NCBI RefSeq assembly: GCF_006345805.1
Contig: NC_043008.1
Span: 7,998,001-8,062,000 of the forward strand
Length of the DNA stretch: 64,000 nt
Source of the DNA: Octopus sinensis
Taxonomy: Eukaryota
Direction: 5' to 3'
The notes below the pieces were generated by a model. It was given only the letters and a program-made list of their open reading frames with translations, did not search any database and was not told where the DNA came from. This document shows, piece by piece, positions 8,838 to 37,800 of this stretch. Position 1 is the stretch's first letter. Every line of letters starts with the position of its first letter. A program made the translations under genes and the position numbers.

Positions 8838-9430
8838 GTTCAGTAGTTTTATTTTTATTTTTATAGCGTGCTTTCACTTCACTACCGAGCGCAGTTCTGT
8901 GTGCCTTGGGTATGTGCTGTGATTTGTTGTGATGCTCTGATGGTTATTGTATGGAAAGTGTTCTGCGTAGGATGTGTGCAGTGCCTAGTAGTGCAATTTT
9001 CTGTATGTTATATGTGTTTGTAAGTCCTGGTGTTTTTGTTATGTGTTATGTATTTGTCTGAATATTTTTTTATCATGCCTAATGCGACCTACCATGATAG
9101 GAATTGTTTCTGTTTTCAGATTCCACATTCTAGTTACCTCTATTTCCAGGTCTTTGTATTTTGAGAGTTTCTCCATTTCTTTTAGAGACACGTTGTCATC
9201 AGCCGGTATTGATACATCAATTAGAAAGCATTTTTTTTCTTCATGGTCTCTGACAACTATATCTGGTCTGTTGGCCTTAATTTCTCTATCTGTGTGTATC
9301 GGCATATCCCAGAGTATGGTTGCTTTCTCGTTTTCTGTGACCTTTTCTGGTGTGTGCCTATACCATCTTTTTTCTGTTGTTATTCCATAATGTTGGCATA
9401 GCTTCCAATGTATGTAAGTTCCAACTCTGT
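8838..9430 (-). mobile_element. R4/Dong-like LINE 3' end with restriction-like endonuclease (RLE) domain, copy 1
   Basis: DRVGTYIHWKLCQHY...ILWDMPIHTDREIKANRPDIVVRD...LIDVSIP...EKLSKYKDL...IQKIALLGTAHILRRTL*, including the PD..D motif, with frameshifts. Both ends abut (TAA)n. Confidence 0.9.
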
Positions 9431-9457
9431 CATTATTATTATTATTATTATTATTAT

Positions 9458-9886
9458 TCTATGTTTGACTTTTGCTTTATATATGTACAAGTTGGCTCCA
9501 AGTCTCACCCAGAGACCTCAAGAGACAACAGGGTTGGAAGTTCATGTTGTTGTTATGCCTAGTGTGCCATATATTTGGGGGGTGGGGATGTTGTACTAAT
9601 GAATGTCTAAAAAAAAAAAAAAATTTTTTTTTTTTTTTTTAAACCGAAAATTATGGTTGTTTTAAACCTTGAGGTTACATAGAGAGTATTTTGCGTAGGA
9701 TATGAGCAGTTCCATGAGCACTATCTTTTGAACTTCTGCCATTTTTGGGTTTCCTGGTATCTGAGTTAGGTAGCTATCAGCCCCTTTTGCTATCATTCCC
9801 AGGGCACCTATGACAACAGGTATTGTTTTAGTCTTCAGCTTCCACATTTTGCTGATTTCTATTTCAAGATCTTTATATTTGCTCAG

Positions 9887-9887
<1 letters not shown>
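9458..9887 (-). mobile_element. R4/Dong-like LINE 3' end, copy 2 (different subfamily)
   Basis: KLSKYKDLEIEISKMWKLKTKTIPVVIGALGMI...VQKIVLM, frameshift, TAHILRKILSM*, then a 3' UTR unlike that of copy 1. Both ends abut (TAA)n. Confidence 0.88.
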
Positions 9888-9942
<55 letters not shown>

Positions 9943-9960
9943 CATTATTATTATTATTAC

Positions 9961-10098
9961 TATTCAGGTCACTGCCTGGAATCGAACTTGGCATCTTGGG
10001 GTTAGTAGTCCGTATATTAACTACTACGCCATATACCCGTAGGTATAGGCGTAGTAGCATACTAACCCCAAGATTCCGAATTCGATTCCGGGCAGTGA

Positions 10099-10106
<8 letters not shown>
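9961..10106. promoter_or_regulatory. Two divergent tRNA-like Pol III heads forming a hairpin
   Basis: Minus copy has A-box-like TGGCGTAGTAG and B-box-like AGTTCGATTCC. Plus copy has AGGCGTAGTAG and AATTCGATTCC, with a ~12-nt deletion between the boxes. Confidence 0.65.
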
Positions 10107-10313: not shown

Positions 10314-10359
10314 GACACCTGATGAAGGCCAGAGAGTAAATCAGCCGAAACGTTGTGTT
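10314..10359 (+). ncRNA. Minimal type I hammerhead ribozyme motif (family B, right arm)
   Basis: gacac-CTGATGA-a-ggc...gcc-GAAA-cgtt-gtgtt. Core intact; predicted cleavage after GUU at 10354. Confidence 0.78.
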
Positions 10360-11012
10360 AACAACAAACAAGATGAGGACAAATATCCGTCTAATGTGAA
10401 TAATGTAAATAATGTACATAACTCCTGAAAATTTACAAATGGTTTGTATCAGACGAAATCCTGCCTGTATATGAATATATCTACATGACGTATATTTCTT
10501 TTAGTGATATTTTAGGAACAAACTATTTTGATATTTATTGATTCTGTCCAGTAATGATATTTATCAACAAATCAGAAGCTATTATCTTTTTTAAACGTCA
10601 CCAATCAGGCCGTACGGGCGTCATTAACCGAAGAGAAATAGTTATCGGTTATGAGAAGTATAAATATTTATAGCGAAATGTTTTCAACACAATTTTTGAC
10701 ATTTTTTCCTTACGCATTTAATATTGTAGAATACACTTATTAAAGTTGTTTAAACGCTTAACGCACTGCATGATATTATTCTGTATCAAGTTTATATTTG
10801 AACATTGTGAAAGAATTTAGATATTCAGAGAGAGAATAATTAGTATTATTTCTCTGTGCTACAACATCTGTGCTAGGATTATAATGAGGCTACTTAAATG
10901 CAAATAATTGTATGGATGCCTTCTGTATTGTAAAACATTAATGATGCCCAAATAACTTTATAAGTAACCTCAGTTGACGACTACTTTCGCTTTCATTATT
11001 AATGACTTAAAA

Positions 11013-18440: not shown

Positions 18441-18835
18441 AGCATTTTCATTCAAACTCTTTTATATATATATATATATATATACAAGAATGGTTTTATA
18501 CTGTCAATCTAACACGAACGTGACAGTAGGGGGTACACCACCGCTGTTTAGCCCTAGGAAGCTTCGACGCCTCCTGATGGCTTTGACGCATTTTTCCTGT
18601 GTCCTTATATACAATTATATAAATGTATATAAGGACACAGGAAAATGTGTCAAAGCCATCAGGAGGCGTCGATGCTTCCTAGGGCTAAACAGCGGTGTTG
18701 TACCCCCTACTGTCAGGTTCGTGATAGATTGACAGTATACAACCATTCTATCGCCCCACCACCGTACATATCTCTACGAGAGATTTAGAAATTTAGTATT
18801 TCTGATATATACAAGAGTTTGAATGAAAATGCTTA
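18439..18835. repeat. Nested fold-back: ~131-bp inner inverted arms plus ~30-bp outer inverted arms
   Basis: 18487-18618 vs 18619-18749 differ by about 7 mismatches and 1 indel. 18439-18468 vs 18806-18835 differ by 1 mismatch. Confidence 0.95.
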
Positions 18836-23772: not shown

Positions 23773-24429
23773 TGAGCGTGAATATAAATGTTAGTGACAC
23801 ACATGGTAATTTCTCTTGAGATTTAAACTCGCGAATGTGGTTGGTTTAATGAGTTTGCCTAATCAAATATTTAGTCACTTCTTGGCGAAGTAGAGCACTA
23901 CGCAATGTAGTTTATGGTCACTAGTGTACGTGTATGTACATATATTATTCTTATGTTATGTAATAAATACCTCTTGTTCTCTTTTCTCGGACAGATGTAA
24001 TATCGAGAAGTTATATGATATCTATGATTATATAATCTCTTGCCCTCCGTGTATGTAACGCATGAGACTTTGCAGCATATATGAACGTATATGAACATAC
24101 GCATACATATAATTATATATACATAAGCATTCACTCTCCTTCTCATAATATTTGGGATGCAGCTGTGCGTCGTTAATCAGTTAGAGGTGAATGTCTTCTT
24201 GGGGTTAAAAAATGGCAGCAACGTCCGTTCAAACGGACAGCCATGCTGAAGTGGCTACGAACATTACTTATATATACGTATATGCATAAATACCATTTGT
24301 GTGTGTATATATATATATACACATATGGTATTTATGCATATACGTATATATAAGTAATGTTCGTAGCCACTTCATATATATATATATATATGCATATATT
24401 ATATATATATATATAATATATATATATAT

Positions 24430-30824: not shown

Positions 30825-31135
30825 TGTTACGATGTGTTCCAGTTGATCGGATCAACAGAGCAGCCTCCTTCTGAAATTAACGTACAAGTGGTTGTGCACT
30901 TGGTAGACATGCGTACCATTAACACTGCTCGAAGGGAGATTCAGCGTGGCAGAGAATGTGACAAGAGTGGCCCTCTGAAATACAGGTATTAGGCATTTTT
31001 TAACCCGGCTGAGTGGACTGGAGCAATGTGAAGTAAAGTGTCCTCTCAAGAATACAAGGCGCCGCCAGGAATATCGGGTTCACGGCCTTACGATCATTAG
31101 CCGAATATCCTAATCGCTGAGCCACGTGACCTCAC
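30825..31135 (-). mobile_element. tRNA-derived SINE family S3 (older variant)
   Basis: Shares ttccagttgatc.gatcaac...ttcagcgtg...gtgacaag...tgaaatacag with the 41970 and 51415 copies. Confidence 0.75.
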
Positions 31136-31309
31136 CAAGCAAGGCATATTCTGTAACAAACATTCCCATTTTAATTCGAGTCAACTCAAAAATATTCCGC
31201 TTGATTTCTGTCACCTTCCTTTCACACTAATGGCTGGCATTCCTTGTATGGAGAGCAACGCAAAAGTACTCAGGACGACAAAAATACCTGAATGTAAAGG
31301 ACAAAACCG

Positions 31310-32325
31310 AGACATTCATTCTCCAGGCACGGATTTCATCTTTCGTCCCGTATTTTCTAAGGTTTTTCGGTATTGATAATTTCCGATTTTAATGAATATT
31401 TAATATTTTCATCCTTGAGTGACCATATAAGCGTGCTAAGACGTGTTGAAAATTTTCTCGTATTATTTCTAAATGTTCTTTCATGATTTGTTATACTTTG
31501 TTCCATAAAGAATGAGTAGTTCCAATATAGTCGTATCTATTTTCATCTGTTGAGACTACACATCTATTGACGGTATTTCGTACCTTACAGTTTATTTAAA
31601 ATCTGCATTGCTTTCTCCTAGCGCAATCGCATTTTCTGTGTATTAAGCTATAAACGTCTTTATTATTGTATCATATAATATTTGTATATGTTTTATATTT
31701 TCACTGATTATCTTTGTAATTTAGGTTTTCATGATAGTCGCTACTCTTTCTAGTCACCATGTATGCCTGTCTTTTAGTTATAGGATCTATAGAATTATTT
31801 AATTGAGTTGATTCCCTTTGATTATTGTATATTTTCCTGGCGGTGGTTTCAATAGAATTTGGATTAAACAGCTTACTATCTTTTTTAATGTAAAGTATAG
31901 AAGCCATCTTAACATGGCTAACCACATAGGGGAGGGGGTGTTACTGTAGCACCCCTCCCCTATGTGGTTAGCCATGTTAAGATGGCTTCTATACTTTACA
32001 TTATCGAGCGATTGCTGTTTCAATCTCATTCTGAGATTTAATAATGCTATCTTTTTTTAAAATTACTATTAATATTAATATCTTTAATTTTGTTTTCATT
32101 AATATTTCTCTTATTAATGTTATTGTTCCGTGACTTCGCTTTTTGTTTGGTGCTGTGCACGTCTATTATTTAAGCTAAATTTCTAGAGTTGGAGAACGCG
32201 ATTTTGATTCTTCGTTTATTAAATGAACTATGGAATTTATTCATTACTGGAAAAAATACATCTAGTGCTTCATAGAACATTCTAGGTATTTTGATTTTAA
32301 TACTAGACAAGAAAGAAGTTTTAAT
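31310..32325 (-). pseudogene. Neptune-like Penelope element: linker + Cys motif + GIY-YIG endonuclease, decayed
   Basis: IKIKIPRMFYEALDVFFPVMNKFHSSFNKRRIKIAFSNSRNLA*II ... RKCDCARRKQCRF*INCKVRNTVNRCVV...YDYIGTT ... ITNHERTF...STRLSTLIWSLKDENIKYSLKSEII...PCLE. Confidence 0.85.
31886..32003. repeat. Near-perfect hairpin (~55-bp arms) made from the Helitron H1 internal unit
   Basis: taatgtaaagtatagaagccatcttaacatggctaaccacataggggaggg and its exact reverse complement. Homologous to 467-526. Confidence 0.92.
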
Positions 32326-32589
32326 TGCTTTTGCAAACAATGTATTCATTTTAATAGATTTGAATAATAGAATGCCTTAATTTATATAATATTAATGAAC
32401 TTTTTTCTCTATTAACATCTATAATAAATGTAATAATAAAGAAACATACAAAGAATGTAAGAACAAAATTCAGTTTATATGATTATACATAGTATAACCT
32501 AAAAACTGTTTAAAACATTAGTAGTAAGAAGTTAGAAGGACTTTAGAATATAAAGGACAACTTATTTAATAACCACGTGGTTCTTACTG

Positions 32590-32725
32590 GCTAGTAATTA
32601 TCCACTACTATTATTAATAACCTTCTCAAAAGTTCAAATAATATAATCAATTCTGAAATCTATCAAAAAGCCATGTGACTATATAAAAGTATTCTATAAA
32701 TATCCACATCACGATCGTTCGAGAA
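32590..32725 (+). pseudogene. Penelope/Poseidon-type GIY-YIG start, decayed
   Basis: TTIINNLLKSSNNIINSEIYQK, frameshift, PC...TSRS resembles NT..L.K....G.Y.IPC..C...YIGQT.R. An HHR lies ~180 bp downstream on the same strand. Confidence 0.5.
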
Positions 32726-32895
32726 AAATTGCCAATACCAACATACACTGCTACTGTTGCTGCTGAATTTACTCCATAACGAATCAATGGAGGAAAACAG
32801 TACATCGATTAATGTTATGATTACCTTCTACTACTAATCCTAATTCAAACTAATAAAGGAGAAAAAATTCCTCTTTCAACAAAGTCGTATTTATA

Positions 32896-32986
32896 TACCC
32901 TGAAGAGATCGTGGTAATAATGTATAAATCGCTTCATATAAATATGCAACAATATAGAATTAGTGCGATCGAAACATATGTTGGAC
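32896..32986 (+). ncRNA. Type I hammerhead motif with long stem II insert (family C)
   Basis: cc-CTGAAGA-gatcgt...gcgatc-GAAA-catatg-TT-gg. Stem II is 6 bp, stem III is the ACATATGT palindrome, and stem I is eroded to 2 bp. Confidence 0.68.
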
Positions 32987-33753
32987 AATTATTATGAATA
33001 AACGAACTGGAAATAACCATAAAGTTTGAATGTTCAAATTCTTCATTCTCATTATTATCACTATTCTACTTTATACTCTAAGTAGCCAAGAAATAAATTA
33101 TAAAATCGGATGGGAGTTAAAGGAAGTTTACTACAAAATGAACAATCTGAAGGAACAAGGCTTGGTATTTCCCGCATAGAAATTCGGTATCTGCCTAGAT
33201 TTTGTATCCCTGCTTTTGCTAGGTATATAAATGTAAGATCCAGGGATCAAGGTGTAGGAAGACCGTTAGCTTCAAGCAATCAGTAGTAAATAAATAAATA
33301 GAAAAACAATTTCAGGGACAATAGTTGTTTATTGAGACGGAGGGTTGTGGATATTTTCTTTCGTATCGAAGAACGATAAGTTGAAAAGAACTTCTTTTTA
33401 TAGTCCTCGGGTGTAGAAATAAGAATACAAGAGATACTAAATGGAGTAGGTAAGACCCAGGCTACATATGTTTCATAGCGTGTGGAACTTCAGACGTGGT
33501 AAAAATCTGAGCGAGGTGTATACCGCCGGCTACTCTCCAGAGCAAGGTATAATAAATATGTACCATAATGGTATGATTATAAACAGGACACATTTTTAGC
33601 CATTTCTCCGTAGACTAGGTTCTCATCAGAGGGGTCTGAAGCATTCTGACAATCCCCAGAGAAAGAATTACCCAAATTGTTTATATAGTCAACAAATGCA
33701 GCAGTTACTCTATGAAGGAGTCTCTAATTTGTATCCCTAATTTGAAGCCTGTC

Positions 33754-33818
<65 letters not shown>

Positions 33819-34749: not shown

Positions 34750-35028
34750 CGAAAGAGAGAGAGGTAGAAGGAGAGTAAGAGAGTGTGAGAGACAGAGAGA
34801 GAGGCAATTATGCGGATAAGCTAATTTGAAATATTAAATATTTTAGATTTGTTAAATATAGAAGTTTGTGTATGAAATACAAAATATCTTCATGAGACCA
34901 CAGAAGATAGTAGCTGTACTCCTTCCCAATTTAATACTGCTACCGATTGTACTTCCAGATCTTCTGTACTAATAACGAACCAAAGGAATTTAACATCCCT
35001 AGGGGTAAACTCCAACCGCAGAGTAAGT

Positions 35029-35458
35029 AGGAAAACTTGCAGTTGTTGGGTATCTGCTCTCTTCCTCCTTCTAGGGTTCTGTCTGCGTAAAAATGTAGTC
35101 TACAAGTGTCGTGTTAAAAGACAACTCCCCCATCAAGCAAGGATCTATATCAGGGGCACTGTTGATTTCAAGCGCCTACCATGCACACACGAACACTTTC
35201 TCCAATCCAAATACTAAATTATCTACATCCTTAGCAACTTATATACAGAACCTTAAATTTCAAAATGTTCCCGATACCCTATCCTGGTCTATCCTAATTG
35301 AGGCTCCCTCATACATTGCACACAGTATCTACAAATTATGTTTATGGGAATCGCTAACCATGCTTCGTCACAACAACATCTCATTAATTAATAGATTCGC
35401 AAATGTAGTAGTGTCTTGTAAATACAAGTTCTACGCATCATTAGCCAACTTTATTTAA
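35029..35458 (+). pseudogene. Neptune-like PLE GIY-YIG endonuclease C-terminus (one frameshift)
   Basis: RKTCSCW...LGFCLRKNVVYKCRV...RIYIRGTVDFKR, frameshift, YHAHTNTF...STSLATYIQNLK...LSWSIL...APSY...KLCLWE...LINR...SCKY. Confidence 0.85.
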
Positions 35459-36308
35459 TCTATGTAAACTCATAAATATAATTATCCTTAATTAAAATTA
35501 AATTTGGTTTACGCCTAATACTACTCTTCTTATTGAATTATTCCTCCTTCTCTATTCACCTTCTATTCAAGTTCCTACGAATCTGCATACCTCAGCATTC
35601 TCGCCCTAATATCAACCAACATTCATTATTCTACCAACCACTGCTAACTTGACCACCGACTCACCCACGCCCAGTCCACTTCTCTCTATTTTCTTTCATA
35701 TCTTTCTGCAATCTAGGTTTTTTTGGGTTTTTTTTACAATCTACTTTTTAGTTCATCTACGTTGTTGGTGATACTATTAGAAGAATGTTCAGCTGTTTAT
35801 GCAACAGCATCATCTACGCTTGATTCGTAATTATCATTGTCTTTACCATGTTTTGGGTGTCCAACTTTGCATCGATTATTTGATCATCAGATCCAAACAG
35901 AAATATTCATGCTGCTGATAAATCAACGTGATTAGTCACACTTGATGCTGAAAGATCTGTTTAATTAGATATTCATGAGAATTACTTTCTTCGCTCACCT
36001 TCCATTTCCTATGCTTAAAAGTCGGAATGAATATTTCCAGTTCATGTCACTGGTGTAACAAATAGTGACAAGGGATGTAAATGTTAGCACAGAGGAATGA
36101 ATTGTGTTCCCTTTTAACTTTCGCATAGATATGCGACTGGGATGGGAAATACATGAAATGGAAAAAAAAATACAGTTCACAGAGTATGTTGCATGTTTAA
36201 TTATAAACGAGAAACGCACTCTTAGACGACAAACTCAATTGTGGTATGTAAACAGGCTACAAATAATAATTGACTACAGCGTGAAATGTTCTATTATTCT
36301 ACAAAGAA

Positions 36309-36606
36309 CTAGCAGTATCGCCCGGCGTTGCTCGGGTTTGTAAGGGAAATAACTATATAAGCATTTTTAGAGAGTTATAGCCAAAATATAGCAAAAAATG
36401 CATTAAAGTGGGTAAAATATGGTGGTCATTTTTTTTTTAAATCGTAGACTCATCGTAGACGCGCGCTAATACCCAGAAGGGCTCGGTATGAATCTCGACT
36501 ATAAGATACCCGGTTTTGGTTAAACTGCACCGCAAAATGTGGGAGTAGTTAGGAACCTAAATCGTAGGAGACAGACACCACACAACCTCTTTTTTATATA
36601 TAAAGA
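36309..36606 (-). mobile_element. Complete non-autonomous Helitron (H1, copy 2)
   Basis: Minus strand reads A|TCTTTATATATAAAA...cccgagcaacgccggg-cgatactg-CTAG|T: 5' TC, subterminal hairpin, 3' CTAG, AT target, no TSD. Confidence 0.9.
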
Positions 36607-36861
36607 TTATTGAAGACTATTTCAGTTTAAATGTTTCTTTGAATACAACTTCGCATAAAAAGGAATATATATATATGAGTAGCAAGTATTAAATGAATTT
36701 CTTTTTTTTTTATATATTGTGGGATGAAGGGGACTTTTATCTGTAAATAATATATATATATATATATATAATGAAGGGTGAAATTAATTAATTTGGAATA
36801 ATTATCAATTACACCAAGTAGTCTTCGGCATGTAAAAGCCTCATTCGAGGAAAATTTAAGT

Positions 36862-37390
36862 AATACTAAGCAATAAAGGGTTTAGCAACGAATTGCCTTA
36901 CCACATACCGAATTTAGAAATAGCAGTCAAAGGGTTTTAGCTATTTCTTCTACTAAAAAGGAGATCTCAGTAAAAACAGCAATTTGAAGGCAGACACAAA
37001 CAGGTAAGAGAGAATGAATTGACGGCAATCTATCATACATTTTTAAGTTATCTACGGACGTACGTTTCGAAATCAAGTTTTTAGGAAAGCATAAGAATAA
37101 ATATTAAATATTAAATAATTCTATCTTACCGAAACTTCTTTTCTCTTCAGCGTAGAATACTATAATCATAAATGATTATATATTGAATTTTGAGATACTA
37201 GAAGGCACCAACTCAACTCAGTATCAGAGCGAGCTAGAATCCGCAAATAGTATCACCGAATTCAATTTGTGAATGAAACGATTGTGTCACCAGCCCCTTC
37301 CCACCCGCGTGTAGCCAAAACAAGACTGCTATTTCTAAATTCGGTATGTGGTAAGGCAATTCGTTGCTAAACCCTTTATTGCTTAGTATT
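36862..37390. mobile_element. HHR-bearing element bracketed by ~67-bp inverted repeats (family D)
   Basis: 36862-36928 (aatactaagc...atagcagtc) is the exact reverse complement of 37324-37390. The HHR lies between them, and (TA)n lies outside. Confidence 0.85.
37051..37156 (-). ncRNA. Type I hammerhead ribozyme with intact core
   Basis: tctacg-CTGAAGA-gaaaagaagttt...aaacttgatttc-GAAA-cgtacg-TC-cgtaga. Stem I 6/6 bp, stem II 10/12 bp, stem III ACGTACGT, GUC cleavage triplet (cut between 37057 and 37056). Confidence 0.88.
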
Positions 37391-37398
37391 GCCTATAT

Positions 37399-37445
<47 letters not shown>

Positions 37446-37449
<4 letters not shown>

Positions 37450-37800
37450 TCGAACTCAACTGGACGGCCAGAACGAGGTGCGTCTATGAGGTCAAAGTTT
37501 CCATTTTTGAACTTGGTATACCAATCACGAGCGGTTATTTCAACTATGACACCCTCTCCATACACAGAACAAATGTCGCGAGCAGCTTTTGCGACCTTAG
37601 AACCTAGATTAAAATCAAAAACAAGGAGGTGTCGAAAATGGTCGTGTTTCTTAACTTGACATCCCAATTTAATTATCTGAAAATAAACAAAAATTAACTA
37701 AAATTAACTAGGAAAAAAAAGCAAAATAGATTCCATAATTTAAAAACGCAATAAATTCCAAAATTTAAAAAACACGGCAGGAACCTAGTTGCCAACCCAA
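37446..37800 (-). mobile_element. Mariner (mellifera-like) 5' fragment: TIR + N-terminal HTH
   Basis: TA|TTGGGTTGGCAACTA TIR. ORF reads HFRHLLVFDFNLGSKVAKAARDICSVYGEG...ARDWYTKFKNGNFDLIDAPRSGRPVEFDE and is truncated by (TA)n. Confidence 0.92.

Follow-up and report, generated by a model that had tools for sequence, protein, structure and literature searches.

Invertebrate genomes each carry thousands of hammerhead ribozymes that belong to Penelope-like elements (PLEs) and retrozymes, and a further copy of this kind is therefore ordinary. PLE insertions often include an inverted 5'-truncated copy and a 30-40-bp extension at one end, with a (TA)n bias that masks target-site duplications (TSDs) (PMC8557442), and their junctions are usually head-to-head (PMC3846280). 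The tail of a PLE corresponds to the interval that separates two RT start sites lying internally within a stem-loop (PMC11167929). Metazoan non-LTR retrozymes have been proposed as derivatives of PLE pseudo-LTRs (pLTRs) (10.64898/2026.07.22.740005). Mollusc retrozyme RNAs are 350-390 nt long and highly self-paired, and in the invertebrate-type retrozyme hammerhead stem III consists of 2 bp and a tetraloop (PMC7229834). As to stem II, a core-only hammerhead search used spacers of 7-17 nt, with eight split cores marked at 35-50 nt (PMC8557442), and a "long helix II" described elsewhere is 6-8 bp (PMC13725137).

The window analyzed here is a stretch of 64,000 nucleotides from Octopus sinensis, AT-rich (GC 0.28-0.38) and rich in microsatellites and decayed mobile elements. 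It holds a hammerhead between inverted repeats, with the following parts, in window positions:

36751..36770, no strand: (TA)n microsatellite, left flank, the presumed target
36771..36861, minus: one-sided extension, putative 3' tail, 91 nt, ending in a stem-loop that adjoins the (TA)n run; presumably part of the element
36862..36928, minus: inverted repeat on the left, which the best model assigns to the main copy as its 3' part
36929..37323, minus: predicted structured interior, comprising a long imperfect rod, a multiloop (two hairpins and the hammerhead) and a 3' hairpin at 36980-36940
37051..37156, minus: type I hammerhead ribozyme, predicted cut between 37057 and 37056
37156-37151 with 37056-37051, minus: stem I, 6 Watson-Crick pairs
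37150-37144, minus: core CUGAAGA
37069..37143, minus: stem II, 75 nt, closing pair G10.1-C11.1; 4 bp, a 2x2 internal loop and ~20 imperfect AU-rich pairs beyond
37068-37065, minus: core GAAA
37058..37065, minus: stem III palindrome ACGUACGU, 8 nt; 2 bp and a tetraloop as a monomer, 8 bp as a dimer
37057, minus: C17
37324..37390, plus: inverted repeat on the right, which the best model takes for the end of the element, copied in inverted orientation and 5'-truncated
37394..37445, no strand: (TA)n microsatellite on the right flank, directly adjoined by a truncated mariner remnant

The minus strand at 37051..37156 holds a complete CUGANGA, GAAA and NUH core. Stem I is open-ended, and stems I and II are predicted to close the junction. 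A preliminary description of this DNA had claimed an intact hammerhead with its core, a 6-bp stem I, an 8-nt palindromic stem III and a long AU-rich stem II; every one of these parts was located on the minus strand, and C17 at 37057 gives the same predicted cut that it had named, 37057/37056. Its further claim, that this is the best ribozyme candidate in the window, agrees with a strict descriptor (Watson-Crick stem I of at least 6 and stem II of at least 4 pairs, palindromic stem III, stem II up to 150 nt), which this site alone passed in the 64-kb window and which found nothing in 150 simulated order-3 Markov windows. A loose descriptor gave two sites in the window, and chance sites in 48 of the 150 simulated order-3 Markov windows. 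Rfam listed no hammerhead among 150 of the 160 matches from one scan, nor among both matches (2/2) of a further scan, probably because stem II is long. Judged from its sequence, the motif is a genuine hammerhead.

Stem I and the base of stem II are predicted with pair probabilities of ~0.9-0.96 in five of six sequence contexts, the whole element included (~0.96); only in the 211-nt context was stem I lost. The proximal pairs of stem II have P ~0.95, and the distal arm is no better than shuffles. Stability of the 75-nt stem II against shuffles gave z -1.03 (158/1000) and, in a second run, z -0.84 (48/200), and the 131-nt ribozyme fragment was likewise no more stable than shuffles (z -0.01). As a monomer, stem III has a predicted pairing P of 0.04. 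Two copies co-folded without constraints form a double hammerhead through the 8-bp palindrome, at -43.2 vs 2 x -15.4 kcal/mol, a dimer fold predicted to be favored by ~12 kcal/mol. A reading of stem II as a spliceosomal intron was rejected: GTAAGA at 37129 looks like a donor, yet the arm offers no suitable acceptor after it, and donors of this sort turn up 1.4 times per kb on each strand. Pairing between 37003-37020 and the 5' arm of stem II, considered as an alternative, was absent from the computed folds.

On how well such a ribozyme might cut, published results point in both directions. Hammerheads with a short palindromic stem III range, as monomers, from inactive to moderately active (PMC4209133, PMC11167929, PMC7229834). 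Retrozyme hammerheads cleaved as monomers at ~0.8/min (coral) and ~0.1/min (mussel), or to 22% in 1 h (axolotl) (PMC7229834). A minimal PLE hammerhead showed no cleavage as a single unit and little as dimers (PMC4209133), the Anolis PLE ribozyme required its protein (PMC11167929), and 8/9 Xenopus retrozyme dimers were inactive (10.64898/2026.07.22.740005). In the Octopus motif, the U at position 1.7 (37050) is unpaired and an A (37073) stands just 5' of the stem II 3' strand; a U and an A so placed make up a known rate-enhancing contact, and additional internal loops within stem II can inhibit cleavage (PMC11875169). The 37051..37156 ribozyme would probably cut slowly alone and better as a dimer.

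The whole interior is predicted to be a structured RNA, a point overlooked in the preliminary description. On the hammerhead strand the 395-nt interior folds at -102.2 kcal/mol (z -4.84, 0/100 shuffles), compared with z -1.66 (4/100 shuffles) on the plus strand; this signal is a single-sequence fold of one copy and is distinct from covariation. The rod is formed by 37316-37273 paired with 36989-37036, closing the multiloop, and its helix probabilities are mostly ~0.9-1.0. A survey covered 212 strand-tiles of 395 nt across the window, with 6-8 shuffles each and 53 tiles with microsatellites skipped; on this grid, which was placed so as to contain 36929..37323 exactly, the interior ranks first of 208 non-palindromic strand-tiles, and just four strand-tiles score higher, all over perfect palindromes. 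When G.U pairs were forbidden, the strand difference was gone (z -1.5 minus, -1.6 plus). G.U pairs make up 15 of the 130 pairs in the interior fold, a share of 0.115 vs 0.156 in shuffles. Reading them as a trace of A-to-I editing is unsupported, as they are not enriched over shuffles.

The repeats at 36862-36928 and 37324-37390 match at 67/67 bases, which bears out the perfect 67-bp inverted repeats described earlier, and their identity supports the young insertion proposed with them. The non-repeated stretch reported beside the left repeat, 36771-36861, was also recovered: its 91 nt end at the (TA)n run and have no second occurrence within the window. Folding of this extension gave z -2.17 (6/200 shuffles) on the minus strand and z -1.21 on the plus strand. 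Three bases lie between the end of the right repeat and its (TA)n run. Towards the 3' end, the predicted cut site is separated by 195 nt from the repeat end and by 286 nt from the (TA)n run. On their inner side the perfect repeats are continued by a weak similarity (9/10 bases), offset by three bases; an equal inner continuation was seen in 8 of 2431 random pairs without microsatellites (3000 drawn). The match can be taken for microhomology at the junction, for a segment of the RNA rod or for the inner, diverged portion of a longer terminal inverted repeat (TIR), and so does not decide between models. No TSD was seen at the ends of the 67-bp repeats. These ends can also be read as 63-bp TIRs flanked by TA, yet a TA duplication is no evidence, since it is automatically contained in any palindrome. 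The window contains no direct or tandem repeat of the element and no further copy detectable by blastn, nhmmer or pattern search. In prokaryotic collections, two element patterns had 0 exact matches among genome contigs, and there was no plasmid or phage match; being prokaryotic, these sets give blanks of little weight.

Two PLE remnants lie nearby:

34951-35458, plus: GIY-YIG endonuclease remnant of a Hydra-clade-like Penelope element, tblastn E down to 9e-14 over 34951-35452
32313-31324, minus: second Hydra-clade-like remnant (linker and endonuclease), tblastn E 4e-10, interrupted by a 118-bp palindrome at 31886-32003

For the endonuclease remnant near the element, an atlas lead pointed to GIY-YIG at 0.89, and a word-index search returned nothing. 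The ORF remnant at 35099-35455 has 160 protein matches at E up to 0.001 (best 1e-9). By eye, the two longest of these carry the RWK/RWR and DKT motifs of Hydra-clade PLEs; Pfam named none of 8 long matches. A second hammerhead, at 32893-32985 on the plus strand, has a stem II of 64 nt, which 5 Watson-Crick pairs close, together with the 8-nt palindrome ACAUAUGU. Only 2 pairs of its stem I are left, a U occupies the cut site, and the surrounding region shows no unusual structure. It lies ~590 bp upstream of the 32313-31324 remnant on the opposite strand, an inverted-pLTR-like position. A long stem II is thus recurrent in this genome, at 37051..37156 and at 32900, a second point overlooked in the preliminary description. 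Among the hammerhead regions at 37150, 32900 and 33629, no sequence homology was found beyond that of shuffles.

Other hammerhead-like sequences are scattered through the window. A minimal hammerhead with a 21-nt stem II occurs in two copies, 10314-10362 (plus) and 8736-8688 (minus), which are 84% alike over 110 bp; only 10314-10362 passed the loose test. At 33629-33460 (minus), near (TA)n, GAAA and the palindrome ACAUAUGU are found; one core lies 148 nt upstream of them and another, degenerate, is nearby, which makes this an ambiguous site that could be a decayed hammerhead. Near-perfect palindromes lie beside (TA)n or (AAT)n microsatellites at 18487-18749, 24251-24370 and 9965-10102; no hammerhead was found in the two beside (TA)n, 18487-18749 and 24251-24370. 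A mariner remnant (Mos1-type HTH; HTH_48, E 6e-18) at 37448-37790 (minus) ends at the (TA)n beside the element, and no continuation of it was seen on the element's other side. One repeat is present in two copies, 401-776 and 36308-36600, the latter ending 170 bp to the left of the element; by its look, we take it to be a non-autonomous Helentron/HINE. The ORF remnants at 9039-9458 and 9662-9900 (minus) look like the C-terminal protein region of an RTE-type LINE.

We consider it likely that 36771-37393 is a non-coding Penelope-like insertion, pLTR or retrozyme, in a (TA)n microsatellite, with its end copied head to head in inverted orientation and a 91-nt extension on one side. The best reading of the fragment is a pseudo-LTR fragment or a retrozyme-like non-autonomous derivative that arrived as a single young retro-insertion. 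In the mechanism we propose, RNA read from 37323 towards 36771 would fold into the rod, from which the hammerhead branches off. A PLE protein acting in trans would nick the (TA)n run, and the RNA would be reverse-transcribed from two start sites 91 nt apart, yielding one cDNA of 553 nt and another of 67-70 nt. Their head-to-head joining would account for the identical inverted repeats and for an extension on one side only. In the parent element, the ribozyme may have cut tandem transcripts after C17, best as a palindrome dimer or aided by the PLE protein; in the present solo copy, cutting would probably be only slow, if the copy is transcribed. The long stem II may be a tolerated family trait outside the catalytic core.

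The preliminary description had likened this geometry to that of PLEs. The inverted truncated copy, the one-sided extension and the (TA)n on both flanks agree with that comparison, whereas the length of the extension, 91 nt, does not fit the published 30-40 bp. The PLE reading draws further support from the endonuclease remnants 1.3 and 4.5 kb off, and from the hammerhead and the structured interior occupying the same strand between (TA)n runs. Against it, the extension exceeds the published tail and could be target DNA, the imperfect continuation inside the repeats resembles that of TIRs whose inner parts have diverged, and the junction is no clean microhomology join. Palindromes beside (TA)n without a hammerhead also occur elsewhere in the window, indicating that inversions arise here by other routes too. 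In six frames the element holds no detectable RT, GIY-YIG or other PLE coding sequence, and the two of its frames used in protein searches found no homologue. A profile of 150 PLE-like proteins matched nothing in the element or in 32320-33757, 35450-36310 or 31000-31330, and across 27 translated frames around the element the one significant Pfam match was the mariner HTH. The nearby PLE remnants show no detected DNA similarity to the element, and no tRNA head was found in it. Resemblances to PLE N- and C-termini were seen by eye only and were dropped; a DIRS-like layout was set aside as well, there being no internal complementary region by eye.

The same inverted ends could belong to a non-autonomous DNA transposon, a MITE or a Crypton-like foldback with 63-67-bp TIRs and a captured hammerhead fragment, or, as a variant, to a 395-nt retrozyme monomer inside a 134-bp palindrome; the ribozyme would then be a passenger. 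The perfect and symmetric repeats, readable as 63-bp TIRs flanked by TA, their imperfect inner continuation, the coincidence of the structured domain with the interval between them and the other palindromic elements of the window all speak for such an origin, which we nevertheless judge unlikely, if deserving of serious weight. The first 12 bases of the element may resemble Crypton-type termini. Animal Cryptons, however, are reported to lack terminal repeats (PMC3212892), and the literature accessible on hammerheads, terminal inverted repeats and MITEs together yields plant work only. A transposon of this kind also leaves unexplained the (TA)n on both sides and the hairpin in which the extension ends on the minus strand (z -2.17), and gives no reason for an intact core and a strand-specific RNA fold.

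If the hammerhead were instead an intronic ribozyme, co-opted or acting by accident, its target would be a minus-strand pre-mRNA of the host. Within the whole element, stems I and II are indeed predicted (P ~0.96), hammerheads with a 2-bp stem III and tetraloop cut as monomers in coral, mussel and axolotl (PMC7229834), and U1.7 (37050) and A37073 provide the bases of the rate-enhancing contact (PMC11875169), but this U and A could easily both occur by chance. The monomer stem III has a P of only 0.04, 8/9 Xenopus retrozyme dimers stayed uncleaved (10.64898/2026.07.22.740005) and extra internal loops in stem II can be inhibitory (PMC11875169). With identical repeats, the insertion is young, and co-option would not yet be visible in it. 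The ORFs scanned from 22 to 51 kb, 150 of the 157 ORFs of at least 48 aa starting at 22-52 kb (369 window-wide), yielded no host exon; the lone match was mariner, and short exons would escape such a scan. The intron idea is therefore not established, and we hold it to be improbable. Least credible of all, to the point of being very nearly dismissed, is a chance array of short motifs in AT-rich DNA. The silence of Rfam, a 131-nt fragment that folds no better than shuffles and the loose motifs of 48/150 simulated windows would suit it. Yet the strict motif appeared in 0/150 of those windows, stems I and II form unconstrained, the motif shares its strand with the structured interior and its architecture recurs at 32900.

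Taking a Penelope-like insertion as the preferred reading, what was known is that small jumping-gene insertions carry a self-cutting motif; what is new is a side arm beyond the published search patterns. Arms of 64-75 nt escape a core-only search because of its 7-17-nt spacers (PMC8557442), and two such long arms within 64 kb suggest that these ribozymes are undercounted. Young, with its core intact, and combining a dimer palindrome with a structured body, this copy offers a convenient test of how PLE ribozymes manage without a normal loop II and of the way in which inverted pLTR ends arise. Its transcript, if there is one, would also form a perfect 67-bp duplex on which editing or silencing would be likely to act. 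The features that most deserve following are the long arm and the rod. A bolder proposal, which we offer tentatively and think more apt to fail than to hold, is that 36771-37393 is a recently active, non-autonomous, PLE-dependent RNA element, whose 400-550-nt RNA was selected for a G.U-rich rod with a 75-nt-stem-II hammerhead. It would represent an unrecognized long-stem-II class missed by standard descriptors and Rfam, in which the internal loop after the fourth stem II pair replaces loop II in the contact with U1.7 and the distal arm stays available as a module for docking proteins or dimers. Some half-core PLE families could then carry complete ribozymes.

The supplement of PMC8557442 allowed a direct comparison with described PLEs. 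Four short motifs had 0 exact matches to the Naiad/Hydra consensus in its accessible part, where line breaks can hide matches, and by eye there was no likeness to two complete Octopus Naiad 3' ends or to the Hydra-1_Obim end given there. The element family may already be catalogued, for instance in Repbase or Dfam. In the mainly open literature, as far as accessible, on hammerheads in PLEs, Octopus or MITEs, or with an extended stem II, no comparable stem II arm is described.

Set against MITEs and other TIR or foldback DNA elements, the locus is similar in size (~530 bp), in being non-coding and in its perfect inverted ends, but differs in having no independent TSD, an intact ribozyme, a strand-specific RNA fold and an extension on one side. 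With metazoan non-LTR retrozymes (coral, mussel, axolotl, Xenopus) it shares a non-coding nature, a 6-bp stem I, a 4-bp stem II and a stem III of 2 bp and a tetraloop, as well as, by single-sequence prediction, a highly self-paired RNA within the 150-450 nt range. Unlike them, it has no tandem repeat and is arranged in inverted rather than direct orientation, and loop II is replaced by an internal loop and long arm. Stem II also separates it from PLE hammerheads: it is 75 nt here, vs ~26 nt or less in 26 Hydra-clade rows of supplementary file S2 of PMC8557442 by our own count, and the longest among the 34 S2 rows is, again by our count and with the figures possibly holding longer ones, ~54 nt, in spike-moss PLE-X1. 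In contrast to the minimal-hammerhead consensus, no extra base stands between A9 and G10.1, and in contrast to PLE pLTRs, the extension is 91 nt rather than 30-40 and there is no ORF remnant. With neither an ORF link nor a tandem repeat, the element is not firmly filed as a PLE pLTR or as a retrozyme. The 6-bp stem I, the 4-bp proximal stem II and the palindromic stem III match metazoan PLE and retrozyme hammerheads alike (PMC4209133, PMC7229834). The inverted truncated copy, the one-sided extension and the (TA)n flanks are those of PLE pLTRs (PMC8557442), and the CUGANGA...GAAA...UH core, the G10.1-C11.1 pair, the palindromic stem III and the dimer fold are those of the pseudo-LTR hammerheads of EN+ PLEs in the Penelope/Poseidon, Neptune and Hydra clades.
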